From: Alphaproteobacteria bacterium
GTDB lineage: Bacteria; Pseudomonadota; Alphaproteobacteria; CALKHQ01
Direction of reading: 5' to 3'
Length of the DNA stretch: 64,000 bases
NCBI GenBank assembly: GCA_041396705.1
Contig: JAWKYB010000003.1
Span: 28,985 to 92,984, forward strand
In this document: piece after piece, positions 2 through 27,457 of the stretch
Layout of the letters: each line of letters begins with the position of its first letter
Numbering within the stretch: the first letter of the stretch is position 1
The notes under the pieces: model-generated
Seen by the model: only the letters and a program-made list of their open reading frames with translations
What the model was told of the DNA's origin: nothing
Database searches by the model: none
Program-made: the position numbers and the translations under genes

Positions 2-3000
2 GACAACGACGACGACACCATCTCGACGGGCGGCGGCGACGTCACCATCCTGGCCAACGTGCTCACCTTCGCGCAGAGCAACACGCTCAACCCCGGCGAG
101 ATCGTGATCAATGCCGGCAGCGGCAAGGTGCAGTTCGACCGGGTCGACCCGGGCGAGTTCAGCCTGGGCGACGACAACGGCGGCACCCATCTGAGCCAGG
201 CGGAGATCCGCGCGATCCGCGCCGGTGTGCTGGTGGTCGGCGAGGGCGGCGGCGACCAGATCGCCAACCACGACGTGCAGGTCAACCTGATCAACGTCGC
301 CAACGTCAACACGAACCTTAGTAGTGCCATCAGCGGCCAGGTCCGTCTGTACGCGCTGGAGGGCAACAACGGCGACGTCGAGTTCAGCGGCGCCAACACT
401 TTCGTTTCGCTGGCGGCGTTTGCCGACGACAACGTGCTGCTGCTTGACGATGGCATTATCAGCATCACCGGCGGCGTCGGCGCGATCGCCGCACTGGCGG
501 CCGGCGACAACATCGAACTGCGCGCACGCACCTTGGTCACCACGAATGGCGGGGCGGTATCGCTGGGCGCCGGCACCAACGAGTCGACCGACACGGTGCT
601 GCTCGACGGCGACGTCACCACCAACGGCGGCCGGTTCTCGTCTGTGAGCAGGGACTTCATCATCGACGACGACGGCGACACGCTCTCGACCGCCGGTGGC
701 AAGGTCGAGATCCAGACCGACAGTATCGACATCGACAGCAACAACGCCGCGGTGGCGGCGATCGACGCCGGCAACGGCTCGGTCTACTTCTATCGTACCA
801 CGCCGGGCACGGTCGGCCTGGGCCAGGCGGCCGGCCAGTTCCAGCTGACCCAGGGCGAGATCGACCAGATCAACGCCCACGACCTGACCATCGGCGACCC
901 GGACAACGGCATCGTCGGCGACGACCTCAACGGCCACAGCAACCAGATCACCGACATCGCGCTGCTGAACGTCGACTTCACCGACAACGGTGCCAACGAC
1001 CAGGGCATCTCGACGCTGGTGCGGCTGTTCGCGCTGCGCGCGCCGGAGAGCGCCGACATCACGATGACGGGCAACATCATCGTGCCGCAGCTGCGCGCCC
1101 AGGCGAACGATCAGGTCATCGTCAACGCCTCGGGCAACCTCAATCCGGCCCTGCTCAGCGAACTGGGCACGATCCACCTGATCGCCCAGGCCGGCGCCAC
1201 CCAGCCGGGGCTGACGATCAACGGCGCGATCACGGCGGCGACCAACTTCCACGCCGACTCGCAGCAGGTCAGCCTCGACGCCAACATTATCGCCCCGGGC
1301 GGCATCACCGGCAGCGCCCAGCTGGTCACCGTGGTCGGCGCGACCAACGGCGCGCAGATCAACGACGCGCTCGGCATGATCACGACCAGCGCGACACCGG
1401 GCTCGCCGGCGCATGTCAACGTCGGCGACGGCATCTACAACGAAGCCGTGGTGGTGACCAAGAACAACGTGGTCCTGACCGGCGGCCTCGGCGCGATCGT
1501 GCAGCCGGCCAGCCCCGGCTTCACCATCAACGCCACCGGCGTCACCATCGACGGCTTCAGCTATTCCGGCACCGGCGGCGATTCAGCCATTCTGCTCACC
1601 GGAGCGGCGGACGACGTGATCATCCGCAACGGTGCCATCACCGGGACCTCCGGCGCGGCCGCCGCCGGGATCGAAGTCGACGTCACGGTGACAGCAGCGC
1701 TCGACCTGACTGTCGACAACGTGACGATGACCGGCGTTAGCGGTTTCGGGATCAGGATCGACCCGGCGCTGAATGGCGCCAACATTGCGATCACCGGCAG
1801 CACGGTCGCCGGGGCGGCCGACGGCATCCGCTTCGCCAACATCACCGACTCGACGGTGTCGATCGGCGGCCTGCTGCTCGGCGACGGCAACAGCATCACT
1901 GGCGGCGGCACCGGCATCGCCACCGGCAGCATCAGTGGCGGCAGCTTCGTCGTCGCCGGCAACAGCTTGGTGCGCGGCTCCTCGGGCTTTGTCTTCGGCG
2001 CGCTGTCGAACAACGCGCTGGTGGCCATCGTGAACAACAACGAGATCCGCGGGACGGTCGTCGATGGCATTGGCATTCTGCAGGTCACCGACAGCACGGT
2101 GGCCATCGCCGGCAACGCCGGCATCTTCGGCAACGACGACGGCATCTTCGTCAGCAACGCGATCGCCAACTCCAGCTTCACCGTTGGCAGCACGAATGTG
2201 ACGATCGGCGGCACGCCGACGGCCTTCGTCGGCAATGGCACCATCCAGGGCCAGAACGACGGCTTCGACATCGACAGGATCGACAACAGCGTATTCAGGG
2301 TGGCCGACAACACCCTGATCCGCGGCGTCAACGGTGATGGCTTCGAGTTCGACAACCTGATCCAGAACGGCGCGAGCATCGAGATCGTCGGCAACGACGA
2401 GGTTCGCGGCGGCACGCGTGCCATCCATTTCGAGCAGGCGATCACCGACAGCAGCGTCACCATTGCCGGCAACACCACGATGCTGGGCGACGCCAACGAT
2501 GGCATCCGCTTCAGCGGCACGCTGACCGGCGACACCGTGCTGATCGGCGGCTTGGCGGGGTCCGACGCCAACAGCATCCGCGGCGCCCAGGGCGGCATCT
2601 TCGCCGGCAACATCGCCGGCGGCAGCTTCCTCGTCATCGGTAACACCCTGGTCCGCGGCGACACCCAGGAGGGCATCCTGACCGGCGTGCTCTCCGCCGG
2701 CCTGACGTTCGGCATCGCCGGCAATTCCGAGATTCGCGGCGGAATCGACGCCATCGGCATCGGTCAGGTGGTCGGCAGCAGCACGGTGGCGATCGCGGAC
2801 AACTTCCTGATCGAGGGCGAAAGCGGCGACGGCGTGTTCGTCTCGACCGACATCACGGATTCCGTGTTCCGGGTCGGGTCCGCCACCCTCACGGTCGGGG
2901 GCATTCCGACACTGTTCGGCGGCAACGGGACGATCCGCGGACACGAGAACGCCTTCGACATCGACCAGATCGTCAACAGCACGTTCGCGATTACCAACAA

Positions 3001-4942
3001 CGCGCTGGTCCAGGGCGTGACGCAGGAAGCGATCCAGTTCGACAACACGATCGGCGGCGGCGCGAACATCGAGGTCCGGTCGAACACCACGGTCCACGGC
3101 GCCACCGACGGCATCGCCTTCCAGCAGACGGTGACCGACAGCACCGTCACGATTGCCGGCAACGTGATCGCCGGCGACAGCGAGAACGGCATCCGCTTTG
3201 CCGCAGCGCTGACCGGCGACACCGTGCTGATCGGCGGCCTCGGCGCGGGCGATGCCAATAACATCGCTGGCGGCAAGGTCGGCCTCGTCACGGGCAACAT
3301 CGACGGGGGCAGCTTCGTCGTCGCCGGCAACGCGCTGATCAAGGGCACGCTGTTCTCCGGCATCCAGATCGGGGCGCTCAGCAACGGCCTGCTCTTCGGC
3401 ATCGTCGGCAACACCGAGATCCGCGGCGTCGGCCTCGACGGCATCGACGTGCTGCAGGTCAACGGCAGCACGGTCGCCATCGCCGGCAACGACGGGATCT
3501 TCGGCGACGCCGACGACGGCATCTTCATCGGCAATGGAGTCTTCGACTCCACATTCATCGTCGGCACCGCGACGGTGGACGTCGCCGGAACGCCAACCGT
3601 CTTCGGCGGCAACGGCCAGATCGTCGCCAGGAACGACGGCATGGACATCGATCGGATCGACAACAGCACGTTCCGCATCGCCGACAACACGCTGATCCGC
3701 GGCACGGCCGGCGAGGGTCTGGAATTCGACAACACGATCCAGAACGGCGCGGTCGTCGAGGTAGCGGGCAATGTCGACATCCTTGGCGCGACGAGCGGCA
3801 TCGCGTTCCAGGCCAGCATCACCGGTGGCAGCGTGCTGATCGACCGGAACGGGACGGCCGACCAGAACGGGGCGCCCTATGACGGCACCGCACCGGTGGA
3901 CCTGGCAACCTTCGTGCCGACCGGCTCGATTGCCGGCGCCAGCGGCGCGGCCGTGTCGTTCTCCGACATCGCCGGCGATGCGGCGGTGACGGTTTCGCGC
4001 AACATCCTGACCGGCAGCCAGATCGGGGTCCTGTTCGGCACCGTAAGCTCAACCGGTACCACCGCGGTGCACAACAACTTCGTGCTGAACAACCTGTTCG
4101 ACGGCCTGCGCTTCGAAGGCAACGTGACCGGACGGGTCGAGGTGTTCCAGAACTTCATCGCCGACAACATCGATGACGGTATTGAGATCTCCGTCGGCGC
4201 CGATGTCGGCGCCGGCAACCTCGTGATCCAGCAGAACTTCCTGCCCGGCGCCGGTTTCCTCAACGGCAACGGCGGCTTTGCGGTCAAGCACGGCGGCACC
4301 GGCACCATCGACATCGAAGGCAACTGGTGGGGCTCGATCGCGGCCGCCGACATCGCCACCGTGCTGGACAACGTGCCGCTGCCGGCGCTGGTGGTGGCGA
4401 CCGGTGACGATACCAACGTGCCGGGCGTGCTCGGCGTGACCGGGCTGGACCCGTTCGCTTTCCAGAACGCGGTGCTGGTCGGGCCGTTCGTGCCTGGCGG
4501 CGGCGAAGTGCTGGGCTTCCTGGCCCAGGCGCTGCTGGTCGGTGTCCTGGAGCAGTCGTCAGGCGAGGCGACCCCGGGCGACCGCGTCGCCGGCCGGGCC
4601 GGTCCGGATGCCGGCAACGTCTTCACCAACGTGTTCGGCGAGGCCTACAGCCTGTTCGGTGAGGGCAGCCTGGCCGACCTGGCGCCGGCGGCGGGCGGCG
4701 AGGCCTGCACGCTGAGCCCGGTCGAGGGCGGCGTGTCGCTGGGTTGCGGCGCCGGCGGCGGTGGCGGCGGCACCGGCGAGGGCGGCCTGCCGAACCTGGA
4801 GCCGGCCGCGGGCGGTGCGCCGGCAATCGACCCGGGCCTGAACCTGCAGGACCTGCTGAACATGTGGCTGTTCAACTTCGGCACGCCGCTTGACGGCCCG
4901 GTCGCCGGGCTGGACGGGGCGGCGGCGGAGGAGGGCGCCTAA
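2..4942 (+). CDS. Giant secreted-type parallel beta-helix (PbH1/NosD-like) repeat protein, 5' partial. The reading frame is open from the window start; the ORF track begins at 59.
   Basis: 1627+ aa are made almost entirely of about 22-aa beta-helix turns (motifs GNxxIRG, DSTVxIAGN, GIxFxN). The C-terminus is Gly-rich. No stop occurs upstream in frame, so the N-terminus lies outside the window. Confidence 0.75.
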   Translation, partial: DNDDDTISTGGGDVTILANVLTFAQSNTLNPGEIVINAGSGKVQFDRVDPGEFSLGDDNGGTHLSQAEIRAIRAGVLVVGEGGGDQIANHDVQVNLINVANVNTNLSSAISGQVRLYALEGNNGDVEFSGANTFVSLAAFADDNVLLLDDGIISITGGVGAIAALAAGDNIELRARTLVTTNGGAVSLGAGTNESTDTVLLDGDVTTNGGRFSSVSRDFIIDDDGDTLSTAGGKVEIQTDSIDIDSNNAAVAAIDAGNGSVYFYRTTPGTVGLGQAAGQFQLTQGEIDQINAHDLTIGDPDNGIVGDDLNGHSNQITDIALLNVDFTDNGANDQGISTLVRLFALRAPESADITMTGNIIVPQLRAQANDQVIVNASGNLNPALLSELGTIHLIAQAGATQPGLTINGAITAATNFHADSQQVSLDANIIAPGGITGSAQLVTVVGATNGAQINDALGMITTSATPGSPAHVNVGDGIYNEAVVVTKNNVVLTGGLGAIVQPASPGFTINATGVTIDGFSYSGTGGDSAILLTGAADDVIIRNGAITGTSGAAAAGIEVDVTVTAALDLTVDNVTMTGVSGFGIRIDPALNGANIAITGSTVAGAADGIRFANITDSTVSIGGLLLGDGNSITGGGTGIATGSISGGSFVVAGNSLVRGSSGFVFGALSNNALVAIVNNNEIRGTVVDGIGILQVTDSTVAIAGNAGIFGNDDGIFVSNAIANSSFTVGSTNVTIGGTPTAFVGNGTIQGQNDGFDIDRIDNSVFRVADNTLIRGVNGDGFEFDNLIQNGASIEIVGNDEVRGGTRAIHFEQAITDSSVTIAGNTTMLGDANDGIRFSGTLTGDTVLIGGLAGSDANSIRGAQGGIFAGNIAGGSFLVIGNTLVRGDTQEGILTGVLSAGLTFGIAGNSEIRGGIDAIGIGQVVGSSTVAIADNFLIEGESGDGVFVSTDITDSVFRVGSATLTVGGIPTLFGGNGTIRGHENAFDIDQIVNSTFAITNNALVQGVTQEAIQFDNTIGGGANIEVRSNTTVHGATDGIAFQQTVTDSTVTIAGNVIAGDSENGIRFAAALTGDTVLIGGLGAGDANNIAGGKVGLVTGNIDGGSFVVAGNALIKGTLFSGIQIGALSNGLLFGIVGNTEIRGVGLDGIDVLQVNGSTVAIAGNDGIFGDADDGIFIGNGVFDSTFIVGTATVDVAGTPTVFGGNGQIVARNDGMDIDRIDNSTFRIADNTLIRGTAGEGLEFDNTIQNGAVVEVAGNVDILGATSGIAFQASITGGSVLIDRNGTADQNGAPYDGTAPVDLATFVPTGSIAGASGAAVSFSDIAGDAAVTVSRNILTGSQIGVLFGTVSSTGTTAVHNNFVLNNLFDGLRFEGNVTGRVEVFQNFIADNIDDGIEISVGADVGAGNLVIQQNFLPGAGFLNGNGGFAVKHGGTGTIDIEGNWWGSIAAADIATVLDNVPLPALVVATGDDTNVPGVLGVTGLDPFAFQNAVLVGPFVPGGGEVLGFLAQALLVGVLEQSSGEATPGDRVAGRAGPDAGNVFTNVFGEAYSLFGEGSLADLAPAAGGEACTLSPVEGGVSLGCGAGGGGGGTGEGGLPNLEPAAGGAPAIDPGLNLQDLLNMWLFNFGTPLDGPVAGLDGAAAEEGA
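1780..3850 (+). repeat. Three tandem super-repeats of about 690 bp (230 aa) inside the beta-helix gene.
   Basis: Near-identical blocks recur at about 1.8, 2.45 and 3.13 kb, for example TDSTVTIAGN..GDANDGIRFSGTLTGDTVLIGGL and FDIDRIDNS.FR.ADNTLIRG. Confidence 0.7.
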
Positions 4943-21344: not shown

Positions 21345-22196
21345 ATGCGACAGTTAGTCGTTCTGGAGCCGAGCAGGCTCGTCCGCGAGGGTATCTCGCA
21401 TCTGTTGGCCGAACACGGCTATGCGGTCGTCGAACAGACCGCCGTCAACGATCCGGACCAGGATCCGGTATCCGACGACAGCATCGATCTCGTCCTGAGC
21501 GAGCTGCCCGGTCCGCGCTACGACATGACCGAGTGGCTGAAGCGAATCGCGGCCTTCTATCCGAAGGCCAGGATCGTGCTGTTGACCGGGCGCTGCGACG
21601 ATCCGGACACGTTGCGCGAGGCGCTGGCTTGCGGCGCCTTCGGCTATATCGACAAGGATCTGTCTGCCGACGCGGTATGCGCCACCATCGACGCGGTGCT
21701 GCACGGGCAGATCGTGTATCCGCGCGAGCTGCGCGACTGCCTGGTCGGCGACGGCCGGGCACGGGCAGGGCGGGCGGCGCCTGCGGTCCGCGTTGCGGTC
21801 GGCGAATCGGTGCCGGCCGTGCGCATCGCGGCGGTCGGCAACGTCGTCGACCTGCGCCAGCCGAACGGCACGGCCGTGCATGCCGGTCCTGTGGCAGCCG
21901 AGGCGGCGGCACCGCGGGTGCCGGCGCCGTCGAAACCCGCGTTGGCAGGCGCGGGCAGGTTGCAGCAGTTCGGGCTGTCGCACCGCGAGGACGAGATCCT
22001 GCGTCATGTGGCGCGCGGCCACGCCAACAAGATCATCGCAAACGAGCTGAACATCAGCGAAGCGACGGTGAAGTCCCATCTGAAGAGCCTGCTGCGTAAG
22101 CTCAACTTCACCAACCGCACCCAGGCCGCGATCTGGGCGGTGAGCCAATATGGCAGCGCCGCCGGCGGCATGGATCCCGGTGCGCGCACCGCGTGA
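21345..22196 (+). CDS. LuxR/GerE-family transcriptional regulator with an atypical (aspartate-less) receiver domain.
   Basis: The N-terminus has receiver-like topology but VVLEPS replaces the acidic DD pocket, and DLVLSELPGP lacks the phospho-acceptor Asp. The C-terminal HTH is LSHREDEILRHVARGHANKIIANELNISEATVKSHLKSLLRKLNFTNRTQAAIWA. Confidence 0.75.
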   Translation: MRQLVVLEPSRLVREGISHLLAEHGYAVVEQTAVNDPDQDPVSDDSIDLVLSELPGPRYDMTEWLKRIAAFYPKARIVLLTGRCDDPDTLREALACGAFGYIDKDLSADAVCATIDAVLHGQIVYPRELRDCLVGDGRARAGRAAPAVRVAVGESVPAVRIAAVGNVVDLRQPNGTAVHAGPVAAEAAAPRVPAPSKPALAGAGRLQQFGLSHREDEILRHVARGHANKIIANELNISEATVKSHLKSLLRKLNFTNRTQAAIWAVSQYGSAAGGMDPGARTA

Positions 22197-22345: not shown

Positions 22346-22855
22346 CTAGCGCGACTCGTCGGCCGGGCCGATCTGCAGCACCGCGGCCTGCTGCACCCAG
22401 GCGTTGACCGGCGAGGGCTGGTGGCCGCGCAGGATCCAGCCCTGTGCCGGCACCGGCAGGCCGGAGGCCATCGCGGTCCATGCGTCGATCGAGGCGGCCG
22501 GGTTGGGAATCATGCCGACGCCGATCGAGCCGGTTTCCGCCAGCGCATGGTAGTTCCAGCCGCGCAGGCTGCGGCCGCCGGCGCCGAGAATGGTCGAGGT
22601 GCGCGAGCGGACCACGGCCAGGCCGTTGGCGCCGCGCTGCACGTCGACCAGCGCGCCGCTGGAATCGCGCAGGAAGAACTCCGGCCGGTTGCCGGTCAGC
22701 TGCTCGTCGATGATGGCCTCGCGGTAGCCCGCGCTCATCCCGACCGACCCGCCGCCGCGGCTGAAGTTGAACGGCTCGTTGAACAGCTGGGCCTGCGCGG
22801 GCGCGACCAGCGCGCCGGCCGCCAATGCGATGCCGGCGACAAGGACCTTGAGCAT
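22346..22855 (-). CDS. Secreted protein, 169 aa, with signal peptide MLKVLVAGIALAAGALVAPAQA and a CsgF-like mature N-terminus (paralog A).
   Basis: Strong RBS: AAAGGAG, 7 nt, ATG. The mature protein starts QLFNEPFNFSRGGG. It has curlin-like SxxxxxQxGxxNxxA segments. Confidence 0.6.
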   Translation of the reverse strand: MLKVLVAGIALAAGALVAPAQAQLFNEPFNFSRGGGSVGMSAGYREAIIDEQLTGNRPEFFLRDSSGALVDVQRGANGLAVVRSRTSTILGAGGRSLRGWNYHALAETGSIGVGMIPNPAASIDAWTAMASGLPVPAQGWILRGHQPSPVNAWVQQAAVLQIGPADESR

Positions 22856-23452
22856 GGGGGTACTCCTTTGGTGTGCAATCAGCTCCGGGCTTTGCCGGTT
22901 CCCCCATAGGTATTCAACCAAAGGGGGAGGTTCAAGGAAAATGCAGATCGCAGACCGGCAGGTAATGCGTTCAAAGTGTTAGTGTTTTTATTCTACCGCG
23001 CCACCGGCGAATCCGCGAAGCGCTGAGGAATCAAGGCCCGCCGCCTGATGTGGACGCGCTGCGGCCGAGCGGATTCTCTCACATGAAAAATTCTTACCGC
23101 GGCCGCGGCCCTGCAGCCGGGCGCACCGCGACGGACCCGGATTCGCCGGCCGCGGTGCCCGACCGGCTCCTCGGCCCGTCGGAGGGAGTCATCCCTTGGC
23201 ATGAATGCGGCGATCAGCCTTGAGGGCTAGTCAGCAGCGAGGTCATCTTTTGTAGTACAGATCCGGGTGCATGCCGGATCATCCCTTGCGATTAGTACGT
23301 TATCGAAATTGTACAAACTGTCATGATTGCTATGATAGAAAACGAACACAAGAAAACGGCGAATTTTCCTGGTGTTCCCTGGGTCTTGGTGGGAATTCGC
23401 TCTCACACTGCATGTCGAATATCACGCGACTCAATGCGTGAGGAGAGGTCCG
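22856..23452. promoter_or_regulatory. 597 bp divergent intergenic region between the CsgF-like gene (leftward) and the CsgG-family gene (rightward), with strongly AT-rich patches.
   Basis: Positions 22960-23000 and 23220-23400 are AT-rich in a roughly 70% GC background. Likely promoters and regulator-binding sites. Confidence 0.45.
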
Positions 23453-24280
23453 ATGCGATTTGGATTGAAGATTGTTGGTCTCGTTGGCCTGGGCCTGGTC
23501 GTTGCCGGCTGCGCGCCGCGGGCGATCTATGGCGATAACGGCGTTCAGCCGCAGTACAGCTTTCCGGTGACCAACAACGACACGCCCTACAGCGCCTGCC
23601 TGCGCAACCTGGCGGCGCTGCCCGGCAACAACCTGCCGGTCATCGCGGTCGGCGAGGTCTCCGACAAGACCGGCCAGATCAACTACGAGGAAAACGGCAA
23701 TGCGCTGAGCCAGGGCGCGGCCGAGATGATGACCAGCGCGCTGTTCCTGAGCGGCAAGGCCAATCTGGTCGAGCGCTTCGACCTGCGCGTGCCGCTGGCC
23801 GAGGTGTCGATGGCGGAGCAGGGCCTGCTCAATCGCGGCATCGACAGCTATCGCGGCCAGATCCCGGGCAGCGACTTCATCATCCTGGGGGCGCTGACCG
23901 AGCTCAACTACAACATCACCAGTGACGGTGCCGGCCTGTGGATCATGGGCATGGGCGCCGGTGCAAGGACAGTCGTAATCAACGTGGCGTTGGATGCGCG
24001 GGTGGTCAACTCGCGCAACTTCACCGTTGTTTACGCGAAGTCACTTCAGAAGCAGGTATATGGCTTCGAAGTGGAGGCCAATGTGTTCCGTTTCTTTGGC
24101 AACACCTTGGTCGAGTTTGACGCCGGTTCGGTGCGGAACGAACCGCTCCAGATCGCCGTCCGCTCCGTCGTCGAGATGTTCGTGTACGGCATGATGACGG
24201 AGGCGTTCGGGCTGCCCACCACGCCTGAGTGCGAGCTGGTGTCGCTCGAATATCCGTACACGTTGCAAACGGAGGACTAA
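23453..24280 (+). CDS. CsgG/HfaB-family outer-membrane lipoprotein secretion channel, 275 aa.
   Basis: The lipobox is LVVAGC. Blocks align with E. coli CsgG: VGEVSDKTGQ / VYNIQDETGQ, GFEVEANVFRF / SYEVQAGVFRF and SVRNEPLQIAVRSVVE / YTSNEPVMLCLMSAIE. The RBS is AGGAGAGG. Confidence 0.85.
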   Translation: MRFGLKIVGLVGLGLVVAGCAPRAIYGDNGVQPQYSFPVTNNDTPYSACLRNLAALPGNNLPVIAVGEVSDKTGQINYEENGNALSQGAAEMMTSALFLSGKANLVERFDLRVPLAEVSMAEQGLLNRGIDSYRGQIPGSDFIILGALTELNYNITSDGAGLWIMGMGAGARTVVINVALDARVVNSRNFTVVYAKSLQKQVYGFEVEANVFRFFGNTLVEFDAGSVRNEPLQIAVRSVVEMFVYGMMTEAFGLPTTPECELVSLEYPYTLQTED

Positions 24281-24284
24281 GTCA

Positions 24285-25034
24285 ATGCAGCGTAAGCATC
24301 TGTTGGCCGCGGCGAGCGTGATCACGCTCGCCACGGGCCTGGCGGCGCCGTCCGCCCAGGCTTTCGATAGGGTCTGGTGGGACTGGAACCTCGATGTCGA
24401 CACGAAGGTCGACGTCAGGGTCGACGTCGACATCAACGTCGATCCCAAGGGCGCGGTGATCTCCGAGACCGACCAGTACTTCAAGGGCTCGCAGGAAGCG
24501 ACCGCGAAGATCGGCGACGTCTATGTCGATCCGAAGGGCTATCACCTGGACGGTGCCACCGACCTCGGCGAGGTCAACAACGTGGCGGCCGCGCTCGGCA
24601 ACTCGAACGCGATCACCTCGGACTTCTCCGTGCAGTCCGACGTCGACCAGGATGCCATCGGCACCGCCTGGTACGGCGCCGACTTCGAGGCGACCGCGAA
24701 AGTCTATGACATCGACAATGCGTCGGTCAGCAACGTCGCACAGGCGATCGCGAACTCGAACTCGATCACCGTCGACCCGCTGCGCGAGCATGGCTGGTAC
24801 CACAGCAGCTCCGACGACGCGCTGATCATCAGCAATGTCGAGCAGTCGGCCTATGCCAACGGCAGCGCCTACGCCTCGGTCTACGACGTCACCATCCGTG
24901 GCTTCGGCGACCTCGGCTCCGGTGACAACGAGCTGAACCGGGCTCTGGTCACCAACTCGGCGATCGCCGCCGGCAACGTGAACAACATCACCCTGGTGAA
25001 CGGCGCCATCGCCTTCCCCGATCAGGACAACTGA
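24285..25034 (+). CDS. Secreted curlin-like repeat protein, 249 aa. It is the candidate amyloid or cargo subunit for the CsgG-family channel.
   Basis: The signal peptide ends AQA. Four or more degenerate repeats SNVAQAIANSNSIT, NNVAAALGNSNAIT, TNSAIAAGNVNNIT and SNVEQSAYANGSAY resemble the NxAxxxQ curlin half-repeat. The gene starts 5 nt after the CsgG stop. Confidence 0.55.
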   Translation: MQRKHLLAAASVITLATGLAAPSAQAFDRVWWDWNLDVDTKVDVRVDVDINVDPKGAVISETDQYFKGSQEATAKIGDVYVDPKGYHLDGATDLGEVNNVAAALGNSNAITSDFSVQSDVDQDAIGTAWYGADFEATAKVYDIDNASVSNVAQAIANSNSITVDPLREHGWYHSSSDDALIISNVEQSAYANGSAYASVYDVTIRGFGDLGSGDNELNRALVTNSAIAAGNVNNITLVNGAIAFPDQDN

Positions 25035-25147
25035 TCGCAGGGCTGTTGCTCGCAACGCAAGGGCAGGGGCGGCGTTCGCGCCGCCCCCGTCCGCCAAGAC
25101 AGGGAATCGCGCTCCCGACCGCGCCGACGGCGCAGGGAGCGAACGCA

Positions 25148-25582
25148 ATGGGGGTAATGATGACTGCACATGCGAAGACGCGGGGCCTGACCGCCGTGAC
25201 GGCGGTTGCCGTTCTCGCCGCGAGCGCCCTGTGGGCCGCGCCGGCCTCGGCCCAGATGTTCCGCGAGCCGTTCTCGTTCGGCGCGCGCAGCTCGGCCAGC
25301 CTGGCGATCTTCATGCGTCAGCGCGACGACGCGCTCAGCGCGTCCTCGTCCGGCGTCGGGATCGGCAGCGGCACCTCGCAGGCGCTGGTCTGCGGCAGCA
25401 GCGGCGGCACCACCGCGTCGACTGCGGCCGGCAACATCACCTGCGTGCTCGCCGGCAACAACACCAACGTCGTGGTGAACAGCCACCAGGACTCGACCGG
25501 CGACCAGAATGCCGATGCCAACACGCACCAGACGGCGGCGGAGACCATCGGCGACATCCTGAACGGCGAGCCGAACGGCTAG
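25148..25582 (+). CDS. Secreted protein, 144 aa, with a CsgF-like mature N-terminus (paralog B).
   Basis: RBS: GGGAG, 8 nt, ATG. The signal peptide ends ASA. The mature protein starts QMFREPFSFGARSS and is Gly/Ser/Thr-rich with 2 Cys. Confidence 0.55.
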   Translation: MGVMMTAHAKTRGLTAVTAVAVLAASALWAAPASAQMFREPFSFGARSSASLAIFMRQRDDALSASSSGVGIGSGTSQALVCGSSGGTTASTAAGNITCVLAGNNTNVVVNSHQDSTGDQNADANTHQTAAETIGDILNGEPNG

Positions 25583-25777: not shown

Positions 25778-26173
25778 ATGCGCCAGATCGTCATCCTGTC
25801 CATGCTGCCGCTGCTGGCGGGCTGCGGCCTGCCGCCGGCGGTCGCCATCGCGTCCTATGCGGTCGACGGCGTGCTGCTGGCCGCAACCGGCAAGACCACC
25901 AAGGACCATGCGCTGTCGGTCGCCATGCAGCAGGACTGCAACATGCTTCACGTCATCGCCGGCGAGTCGATCTGCCAGGACTACGAGCCGACCCAGCGTG
26001 CGGCGATGGCGATGGCGTCGAGCGGGCCGGGCGAAGAGGCGCTGACCACCACGTCCGACGGGCGGATCATCCGGGTGGCGGCGCAGCCGACGCCGTCGCT
26101 CGACGGCGGCCTGATCGCGGCGGCGCCGCGTGCCGGCCAGGCTGCCGCCGGCGATGCGGCCGCCGCGCACTAG
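25778..26173 (+). CDS. Small lipoprotein, 131 aa, last gene of the cluster.
   Basis: RBS: GGAGGAGG, 6 nt, ATG. The lipobox is LLAGC. Two further Cys are present. Confidence 0.55.
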   Translation: MRQIVILSMLPLLAGCGLPPAVAIASYAVDGVLLAATGKTTKDHALSVAMQQDCNMLHVIAGESICQDYEPTQRAAMAMASSGPGEEALTTTSDGRIIRVAAQPTPSLDGGLIAAAPRAGQAAAGDAAAAH

Positions 26174-26211: not shown

Positions 26212-26586
26212 ATGGAACACAACACGAGAGCGCGGCCGGGACCGTCGGGCGAGGAGCCCCGCCGGTCGCCGGCGCCGGAGAGAGGGGCAATGGGCGCGGG
26301 CGAGGGATCCCGGGCCGAGACGGGGCGCCACCGGCGCTTCACGCCGGAAGAGATCGTCAAGATGCTGCGCGAGGCCGATGTCCGGATCAGCCACGGCGAG
26401 AGGGTCGGCGCCATCTGCGCCGACTTCGGCGTCTCGGAGCAGAGCTACTACCGCTGGCGCCGTCGCTATGGCGGCCTGCGCATCGACCAGGCCCGCCGGA
26501 TGCGGCAGCTGGAGCGGGAGAATACGAGGCTGCGCAAGCTCGTCGCGCTGCTGACTGCCGACCGCGAGCAGCACGGCGGCGCCTGA
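26212..26586 (+). mobile_element. IS3-family (IS407-like) transposase OrfA remnant. There is no OrfB or DDE domain downstream.
   Basis: RRFTPEEIVKMLREADVRISHGERVGAICADFGVSEQSYYRWRRRYGGL...LERENTRLRKLVALL shows the HTH plus leucine zipper typical of IS3 OrfA. The ORF stops and unrelated genes follow. Confidence 0.7.
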
Positions 26587-26614: not shown

Positions 26615-27457
26615 TCAGGACAGGGTGATGACCACCCGCCTGTTCGCCGCGTTGCGCACGCCATCGCCGGTGGCCTCGGCCGGCTCGCGCTCGCCGACGG
26701 CATCCATCTGGATCCGGCCGGCGTCGACGCCACGGGCGACCATCAGGTCGCGCACCGCCTCGGCCCGAGCCCGCGACAGCAGCTGGTTGTATTCCGGCGC
26801 GCCGGCGGTGTCGGTATAGCCGACCACCGCGATCGGCAGCGTCGGGTCGGCCAGCGCGGCGACGACGGCCTGCTCGACCACGGCGCGGCCGGCGGTGGTC
26901 AGCGCGGCGCTGTCGAAATCGAACAGGATCACGAAATTCTGCGCGTCCGCCGCGCCCGGGCCGGTCTGCGGCCGGCCGCCTGCCGCCATCAGGCATTCGT
27001 AGAAGCCGTCGCGGCAGACCATGATACGGGAATCGTCCTGGTCCTCTTCGGCTTCGGCGATCCAGCAGTCGTAAAGCGCCTGGCAATGCGCCACCAGCTC
27101 GGGCTGGAAGTCGCGGCCGCCGCTGTACAGGATCGCGACCAACTGGGCCCGCGCCTCGATCAGTTCCTGGACGACCGACTCCGGGACGGCACGCGCGGCG
27201 ACCTCGTCGGGCAGCACCTGCTGTCCGTAAGACGCCGCCAGGCCCTTCAGCGCGAAATAGTCGGCGTCGGTCCAGTCGCCGCGGCCGGCCTCGAACACCG
27301 CCAGGTCCTGATACTCGTCCATCAGCGCCACGTTGTGGCGATGGCCGACTCGCGGGGTCTCCTGCAGCGTCTCGATATTCCAGGCGGTGGTGCAGCCCGA
27401 AGCCAGCAACACCGCCGCGATGGCAAGCACCAGCGGTTGCCACGATCGGATGGACAT
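26615..27457 (-). CDS. OmpA-family lipoprotein with a peptidoglycan-binding OmpA_C domain.
   Basis: The lipobox is LLASGC. The C-terminus reads FDFDSAAL...VVGYTDTAGAPEYNQLLSRARAEAVRDLMVARGV...NRRVVITL. Confidence 0.8.
   Translation of the reverse strand: MSIRSWQPLVLAIAAVLLASGCTTAWNIETLQETPRVGHRHNVALMDEYQDLAVFEAGRGDWTDADYFALKGLAASYGQQVLPDEVAARAVPESVVQELIEARAQLVAILYSGGRDFQPELVAHCQALYDCWIAEAEEDQDDSRIMVCRDGFYECLMAAGGRPQTGPGAADAQNFVILFDFDSAALTTAGRAVVEQAVVAALADPTLPIAVVGYTDTAGAPEYNQLLSRARAEAVRDLMVARGVDAGRIQMDAVGEREPAEATGDGVRNAANRRVVITLS

Follow-up and report, generated by a model that had tools for sequence, protein, structure and literature searches.

The locus and the encoded protein

The window analysed here is a 64,000-nucleotide (nt) stretch of contig JAWKYB010000003.1 from a metagenome-assembled genome (MAG) of an alphaproteobacterium. 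The gene under study, referred to as the target gene, lies at positions 24285 to 25034 on the forward strand; it follows a gene for an outer-membrane lipoprotein of the CsgG/HfaB family, a putative secretion channel, and precedes a gene for a small secreted two-cysteine protein with a weak resemblance to HfaA. An earlier reading of the sequence, here called the original prediction, described the target as a secreted protein of 249 amino acids (aa) and a candidate amyloid subunit with curlin-like repeats. The open reading frame (ORF) is confirmed, its signal peptide can be read from the sequence, and the protein is 100% identical to NCBI 'hypothetical protein R3F55_03565 [Alphaproteobacteria bacterium]', which derives from a MAG contig of 539 kb. 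A coding artefact of the antisense ORF 24282..25169 is ruled out by the G+C content at third codon positions (GC3) of 0.87 in the forward frame, by the conserved homologues and by the NCBI gene call.

The protein begins with MQRK, continues into a hydrophobic core and reaches AQA followed by FD, an arrangement that reads by eye as a Sec signal peptide and in which A24 and A26 are nearly invariant among 71 aligned relatives. The mature protein has 223 residues, an isoelectric point of 4.05 and no cysteine, with 35 aspartates and glutamates against 11 lysines and arginines. In its conserved N-terminal segment (aa 27-56), W32 is invariant in the same relatives and F27, W34 and G56 nearly so, making this segment a candidate for export or docking. 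As the original prediction had it, the protein contains no N22-like Gly-rich segment. The VDPKG elements that it placed before the repeats occur at residues 52 and 81; the first (D53, P54, G56) is conserved in the family, whereas the second falls in a variable loop.

The position directly downstream of a CsgG-family gene is borne out, with a gap of 4 nt (TAA gtca ATG) rather than the 5 nt first given. This short stop-to-start spacing, together with a Shine-Dalgarno sequence inside the 3' end of the upstream gene, suggests that the two genes share one transcript with coupled translation. A search around the cluster revealed no sigma-70 promoter-like site, and terminator-like sites are no more frequent there than expected by chance. 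The best named match of the channel gene is the NCBIfam HfaB equivalog (4.1e-50, 170 bits; cutoff 300), followed at a distance by the E. coli CsgG model (9e-12, 45 bits; cutoff 505). Its product shares 27% identity with E. coli CsgG across 207 aa and is identical to an NCBI entry named 'CsgG/HfaB family protein'. By score, Caulobacter HfaB is the closer of the two.

The G+C content of the channel and target genes (23200..25000) is 0.54-0.66, below the 0.70-0.75 of the flanking genes.

A three-strand module in three copies

The best off-diagonal Smith-Waterman score within the target is 92, compared with 37.7 +/- 7.6 for shuffled sequences, and none of 200 shuffles reaches it; the repeats thus survive the shuffled-sequence test named for them beforehand. 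Their nature differs from what was first proposed. The four segments of 14 residues described as copies of one 14-15 aa unit are found at residues 98, 149, 183 and 223. Three of them (u1, u2 and u4) are homologous, with pairwise scores of 46, 33 and 29 where the 99.9th percentile of the null is 17, and they share the pattern N-x-A-x-A-x-x-N-x-N-x-I-T; these are the c-strands of the modules defined below. The fourth, u3 (SNVEQSAYANGSAY), scores 3, 16 and -4 against them and is a different element: it is the a-strand of module 3, which carries a Gln and is homologous to SETDQYFKGSQEAT and SDVDQDAIGT.

By sequence comparison, the true repeat unit is a module of ~45-60 aa comprising three strands (a-b-c) and present in three copies. 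When the alignment of the 71 relatives is cut at aa 57-112, 115-163 and 181-237 and the pieces are compared profile against profile (hhalign), all three module pairs are homologous (probability 97-97.5%, E 8e-12 to 5e-11). Strand a follows x-S-x-V-x-Q, strand b A-x-A-x-V-x-D-V and strand c V-x-N-x-A-x-A-x-x-N-x-x-x-I-T. Only eight columns are invariant across the 71 sequences (W32, G68, Q64, Q122, Q187, N106, N157 and N231), six of which are the a-strand Gln and the c-strand Asn of the three modules. The core of the original prediction, a secreted repeat protein tied to a CsgG-family gene with Asn or Gln recurring in each repeat, is upheld by these residues and by the linkage described below.

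The resemblance to curlin fares differently. Curlin repeats are ~19-23 aa long and follow S-x5-Q-x-G-x-G-N-x-A-x3-Q, with a minimal form of x6-Q-x-G-x2-N-x10 (PMC3521004). Half-repeat spacing of the curlin kind had been seen in the target, yet neither Q-x-G-x-x-N nor N-x-A-x-x-x-Q occurs in it, and the unit is a three-strand module of ~50 aa, not a half-repeat of ~11 aa. The curlin hidden Markov model (HMM) PF07012 finds no match in the target at E<=1 and none in the 71 relatives at E<=0.01. That the target is nonetheless a divergent genuine curlin, homologous to CsgA or CsgB and encoded in a curli operon, is highly improbable: the missing family match and minimal motif, the long three-strand repeat in place of a two-strand one, the absence of any CsgA profile match, the lack of Pfam matches to CsgE or CsgF among the neighbouring proteins, and the low score of the channel on the CsgG model all stand against it. 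On these sequence criteria, the target is not a curli subunit, and the label 'curlin-like' is wrong.

An unnamed and widespread family

The target alone has no Pfam or NCBIfam match at E<=1 and only chance matches in a search of PDB sequences. Searching 71 family members against Pfam and NCBIfam returns nothing beyond chance, and their joint profile finds nothing at E<=10 among all PDB sequences except two chance matches. A known non-amyloid family, the outcome specified in advance as telling against an amyloid subunit, is not among the results; the target matches no known family. Among the relatives inspected, every source name reads 'hypothetical protein', and no paper on the cluster or the family was found in the literature. 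One caveat attaches to the unnamed status: precomputed Pfam annotation places PF27294.1 on three of 120 relatives and PF27277.1 on one (P0019, P0035, P0323 and P0331 together).

A word-seeded search with the single target protein retrieves nine close relatives only. An HMMER profile search of 1.84 billion cluster representatives, with clusters defined at 50% identity, retrieves 267 clusters at E<=1e-3 and 199 at E<=1e-10. A pattern scan built on a 16-sequence alignment and run over one genome for each of 185,579 species yields 76 loci. Alphaproteobacterial carriers include Ferrovibrio, Inquilinus, Thalassobaculum, Pelagibius, Oceanibaculum, Tagaea, Aquibaculum, Algihabitans, Micropepsaceae, Micavibrio, Parvibaculum, Tianweitania and Oricola, and the Halomonadaceae are represented by Halomonas, Modicisalibacter and Vreelandella. 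Caulobacterales are absent from the 76 loci and were not returned by the plasmid search. As far as these sequence searches reach, the family is unannotated, widespread and unnamed; the Caulobacter protein HfaD is set beside it by description only. Its members are read here as very acidic proteins exported by Sec and made up of three homologous a-b-c modules.

The relatives inspected span 222-584 aa, and the length variation sits in the loops between strands. In many of the larger members, among them P0020-P0023, P0029, P0035 and P0095, strands a and b of module 2 are separated by a hydrophobic, helix-like insert (N-L-H-T-x-L-A-x-L-x-T-L-G-A-x-x-G-x-L; columns about 250-297 of alignment A3). 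The target lacks it.

A conserved cassette and its spread

Gene neighbourhoods were compared by searching the six-frame ORFs of the 76 loci and of one metagenome locus (L001; n=77) with the proteins of the window. In 72 of the 77 loci, an HfaB-like gene ends no more than 300 nt upstream of the target homologue on the same strand. The small HfaA-like family is detected by HMM in 70, a homologue of the LuxR-type response regulator (E<1e-10) in 66, and the 169-aa secreted protein of the cluster (sec169) in 41. Because the target almost always stands just after a CsgG/HfaB-type channel gene, it is most likely the cargo of that channel. Co-variation with the CsgG homologue across genomes, suggested earlier as a check, is present: distances among target homologues track those among their HfaB-like partners (Mantel r=0.775, with 0 of 999 permutations reaching this value). 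Together, the lipoprotein, the target and the small two-Cys secreted protein appear as a conserved, co-inherited and apparently co-transcribed cassette.

Strict linkage to the channel gene would also be expected of an accessory factor, that is, a plug, cap, chaperone or adaptor comparable to CsgE or CsgF, in which case the HfaA-like protein would be the real cargo. The N-terminus of CsgF docks in CsgG, and the conserved aromatic motif at the mature N-terminus of the target, paralleled in sec169 and the HfaA-like protein, could be read in the same way. We nevertheless consider this explanation improbable. The size of the target, its threefold repeat and the large loop insertions of its relatives are typical of exposed structural proteins, and it shows no similarity to CsgE or CsgF. 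It also evolves faster than the channel (mean identity 42% vs 62%), as surface-exposed cargo usually does.

A bare three-gene version of the cassette is found on five Vibrio alginolyticus plasmids and one Photobacterium plasmid, where RefSeq labels the products 'CsgG/HfaB family protein', 'hypothetical protein' and 'hypothetical protein'. These plasmid copies suggest horizontal spread of a self-sufficient module. On V. alginolyticus plasmid NZ_CP082309.1 (L078, 6959..8891), the HfaB-like gene, target homologue and HfaA-like gene adjoin repB-parAB, and a gene for an Hpt-domain protein comes after them. Plasmid pPGC22 of Photobacterium ganghwense (L079, 7016..9029) likewise carries these three genes.

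The surroundings vary elsewhere. Of the five loci without an adjacent HfaB-like gene, two are truncated contigs. Two others are Tagaea loci with a pair of target-family paralogues in tandem (L029, 6664..8786; L042, 7758..10069), and the last, from Algihabitans, has a single copy (L070, 6891..8339); none of these three has an HfaB-like or HfaA-like gene next to it. In the two closest relatives, L001 (4144..6722) and L002 (4199..about 6700), the cassette is immediately preceded by an additional HfaB-like paralogue, which is followed in L001 by genes for a 132-aa two-Cys protein and an Acetyltransf_6 (PF13480) protein; the window has no such extra set. In Halomonas ventosae (L012, 3308..6648), as read from translations, a sigma-54-type activator precedes the cassette in place of the LuxR regulator, and a sugar transferase gene and an O-antigen-ligase-like gene adjoin it.

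Predicted structure and proposed role

AlphaFold2, given the 71 sequences, models the target with a mean predicted local distance difference test score (pLDDT) of 77.5 and a predicted template-modelling (TM) score of 0.68. The core (aa 57-237) is wholly beta, with values mostly above 84, and its strands span 57-67, 69-80, 95-112, 115-125, 132-144, 146-163, 181-203 and 222-237. Residues 27-56 and the last ten residues are of low confidence, and no capping elements are predicted. An earlier run with nine sequences (pLDDT 61) was too weak for use, and the Foldseek search made with it was uninformative. With the later model, Foldseek finds no significant match among solved structures, every match having E>0.3 and TM<0.15; these weak matches, FapC and a CsgA among them, are nearly all to proteins of the beta-helix or solenoid type. 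A reading of the target as an ice-binding protein was rejected, having only weak Foldseek matches to its credit. From the threefold homology of the modules, the positions of the invariant residues and the kind of weak matches obtained, we infer an arrangement of three stacked rungs with ladders of Gln and Asn. About ten long predicted strands with short turns could also describe an integral outer-membrane beta-barrel, a reading to which we assign a very low probability.

In the explanation that we favour, and to which we give an even chance, the target is the cargo of the HfaB/CsgG-type channel and forms a three-rung solenoid that polymerises or serves as an anchor at the cell surface. The protein, probably in an unfolded state, would pass through the outer-membrane channel formed by the lipoprotein whose gene ends 4 nt upstream. 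Its three modules would then stack into a three-rung beta-solenoid at the cell surface, with the a-strand glutamines (Q64, Q122, Q187) and the c-strand asparagines (N106, N157, N231) forming ladders along it, and the uncapped ends would permit head-to-tail addition of subunits, perhaps assisted by the small HfaA-like protein, whose gene comes next, as partner or nucleator. A stable fibre or anchor on the surface would result, serving adhesion or matrix tethering. A polymerising role of an amyloid-like or fibre type is plausible for the target.

Several observations weigh against this explanation. Several strand pairs are joined by turns of only one or two residues, an arrangement that an antiparallel meander would fit too. 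The link to HfaA is weak: the small protein scores 22.8 bits where the cutoff is 50, and just 2 of its 24 orthologues match at E<0.01. Among ten further ORFs sampled in the window (2 to 39480), there is no polysaccharide-synthesis gene and hence nothing obvious to anchor. The family also has copies without an adjacent HfaB-like gene, in L029, L042 and L070. As for known amyloid subunits, the 71-relative profile gives no alignment with E. coli CsgA (hhalign, with a hand-entered CsgA sequence), and there is no sequence homology to FapC: the profile search of PDB sequences has no such match, FapC entries 9u4u and 9nqd being in the solved-structure libraries.

The most serious competitor, though in our view an unlikely one, is that the HfaB-like channel exports a monomeric, non-polymerising surface beta-helix that serves as an adhesin or binds or anchors calcium or polysaccharide, and that is no subunit of an amyloid-type fibre. 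The model for this alternative is HfaD, for which an S-layer- or adhesin-like character has been described. A helix of just three rungs without predicted caps would, however, be very short and have exposed edges, and one invariant Gln and Asn per module is more typical of stacking ladders. In Caulobacter, moreover, HfaA and HfaD do form multimers resistant to sodium dodecyl sulphate (SDS).

Cargo export followed by assembly at the surface, the reading preferred here, bears on a wider question. To our knowledge, the cargo of CsgG-family channels outside curli is essentially unknown, HfaB aside. The present finding ties one large clade of these channels to a specific, conserved and unannotated family of presumed cargo. 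The architecture of that family resembles a polymerising subunit, and culturable and plasmid-borne carriers exist, among them Halomonas ventosae, Vreelandella venusta, Oceanibaculum pacificum, Pelagibius litoralis, an Inquilinus species and plasmid-bearing Vibrio alginolyticus. Only 26% of Pfam CsgG matches belong to curli systems (PMC3521004). If the target does form fibres or anchors, the range of sequences known to take the CsgG route would become wider, a new type of functional-amyloid-like subunit would be added, and a broader scheme of small protein, HfaB-like channel and beta-rich protein would come into view.

Neighbouring genes

The features of the cluster are collected in Table 1. 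The LuxR/FixJ-type response regulator upstream is likely the regulator of the cluster. The sec169 protein and the HfaA-like protein have a common signal peptide and mature start, AQ-x4-P-[FWY]-x-F (hhalign 96.6%), and the mature N-terminus of the target likewise carries conserved aromatics at F27, W32 and W34. These similar N-termini may represent a shared motif for export through, or docking at, the HfaB-like channel. The sec169 family shows no match to E. coli CsgF (hhalign, with a hand-entered CsgF sequence).

The 144-aa HfaA-like protein is a candidate partner or nucleator. Its family has two cysteines and one 'ATAxGN...I...Q-x-S-x-G-x-Q' hairpin, which aligns weakly with the c-to-a hairpin of the target (hhalign 53%, E 1.3e-4).

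Further downstream, in the window as in L001, L002 and a JGI contig, the gene for the 131-aa lipoprotein precedes a small ORF resembling HTH_Tnp_1 (IS3 orfA-like; HTH, helix-turn-helix), which could be a regulator that has been domesticated and not what is left of a transposase. The ten further ORFs sampled are metabolic or without assignment. A forward-strand open frame of 1646 aa (2..4939) continues beyond the 5' edge of the window. It has a GC3 of 0.92 and no Pfam match at 1e-4, and it probably encodes a very large protein from an unnamed family.

Table 1. Features of the target cluster, with positions in the window.
Feature	Position	Strand	Description
LuxR/FixJ-type response regulator	21345..22196	+	Receiver and GerE HTH; Pfam GerE 1.6e-19, Response_reg 3e-9
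sec169, 169-aa secreted protein of unnamed family	22346..22855	-	Mature N-terminus AQLFNEPFNF; no Pfam/NCBIfam match
CsgG/HfaB-family outer-membrane lipoprotein, putative secretion channel	23453..24280	+	Lipobox LVVAGC; Pfam CsgG 1.6e-30
GGAGGA Shine-Dalgarno for target gene	24271..24276	+	Within 3' end of HfaB-like gene, 8 nt before ATG
Target gene	24285..25034	+	249-aa secreted acidic three-module beta-repeat protein, unnamed family
Signal peptide	24285..24362	+	aa 1-26, cleavage after AQA; read from sequence
Conserved mature N-terminus	24363..24452	+	aa 27-56: AFD-x-V-x-W-x-W, alternating Asp/Val, DP-x-G
Module 1	24453..24620	+	aa 57-112: strand a Q64, turn G68, strand b, variable loop, strand c N106; predicted strands 57-67, 69-80, 95-112
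Module 2	24627..24773	+	aa 115-163: strand a Q122, strand b, strand c N157; predicted strands 115-125, 132-144, 146-163
Module 3	24825..24995	+	aa 181-237: strand a Q187, strand b, variable loop, strand c N231; predicted strands 181-203, 222-237
144-aa secreted two-Cys protein, weakly HfaA-like	25148..25582	+	NCBIfam HfaA 9.1e-5, 22.8 bits (cutoff 50)
131-aa lipoprotein (LLAGC), unnamed family	25778..26173	+	Conserved only in closest relatives (L001, L002, JGI contig)
Small HTH_Tnp_1-like ORF, start uncertain	26290..26586	+	Same position in L001, L002, JGI contig
OmpA-family peptidoglycan-binding lipoprotein	26615..27457	-	Pfam OmpA 4.2e-19; same position in JGI relative

Comparison with known systems

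CsgG is the outer-membrane channel for unfolded curli subunits, and in curli and the target cluster alike a lipoprotein channel of this family adjoins the presumed cargo. In each case the presumed cargo is a repeat protein that is exported by the Sec route and in which Gln and Asn recur. An adjacent LuxR-family regulator is a further common feature, and the smaller related protein of the target cluster could act as a nucleator, as CsgB does. The differences lie in the subunit and its helpers: the modules of the target are ~50 aa and three-stranded, compared with ~22 aa and two strands in curlin, the cluster is without an N22 Gly-rich segment, CsgE, CsgF and CsgC, and its channel has the limited identity to CsgG noted above. 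Many Alphaproteobacteria with curli likewise have no CsgE and CsgF genes, as reported by Dueholm et al. (PMC3521004).

The holdfast anchor of Caulobacter (HfaA-HfaB-HfaD, with HfaE) offers a closer parallel for the channel. HfaB is needed there for surface display of HfaA and HfaD, which are co-dependent and form SDS-resistant multimers that anchor the holdfast (PMC6707917; 10.1101/2022.07.20.500906), and hfaD lies directly downstream of hfaB (10.1101/2022.07.20.500906). The target gene occupies the same place after its hfaB-like neighbour, HfaB being the best named match of that channel (4.1e-50), and a small secreted protein weakly matching HfaA completes the cassette; the likeness to HfaD considered here is one of position and description, and the 71 family members have no NCBIfam match of any kind. 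Gene order is B-target-A rather than A-B-D, and the HfaB and HfaA scores both fall below their equivalog cutoffs (170 vs 300 bits and 22.8 vs 50 bits). Moreover, Caulobacterales do not occur among the 76 loci, and no holdfast synthesis genes are present among the ten further window ORFs sampled.

Other HfaB-like clusters occur on plasmids of Variovorax paradoxus (L080, 3370..8717) and Brucella pseudintermedia (L081, 3528..6976). In these, a gene for a small Asn/Ser/Thr-rich two-Cys protein is followed by the HfaB-like gene and then by a gene for an 'S-layer family protein' or a 287-aa beta-rich protein with TVAAGAVNTG repeats, which is the hfaA-hfaB-hfaD order. The family HMM finds no homology to the target in either cluster. 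Such variants in hfa order suggest broader triads of small protein, HfaB-like channel and beta-rich protein, in which the beta-rich component would be interchangeable.

FapC provides the nearest counterpart for the subunit, with three imperfect repeats and variable linkers recalling the three modules and loop insertions of the target. Fap export proceeds via the FapF barrel, whereas the target is associated with a CsgG/HfaB-type lipoprotein, and no other fap genes are found among the neighbours.

By sequence, the target fails the defining tests for both curlin and FapC membership. We tentatively propose, with less assurance than we attach to the role of the target itself, that the HfaB-like channel, the three-module protein and the HfaA-like protein constitute a third CsgG/HfaB-dependent extracellular fibre or anchor system, apart from curli and the Caulobacter holdfast anchor. 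Its subunit would be a solenoid of a new family, with long rungs in three layers and Gln/Asn ladders. The cassette is spread widely through Alphaproteobacteria and Halomonadaceae and mobile on Vibrionaceae plasmids. By analogy, the logic of such a system would be of the curli and Hfa-anchor type and its subunit architecture closest to FapC; the ancestry of its channel appears nearer to HfaB than to CsgG.

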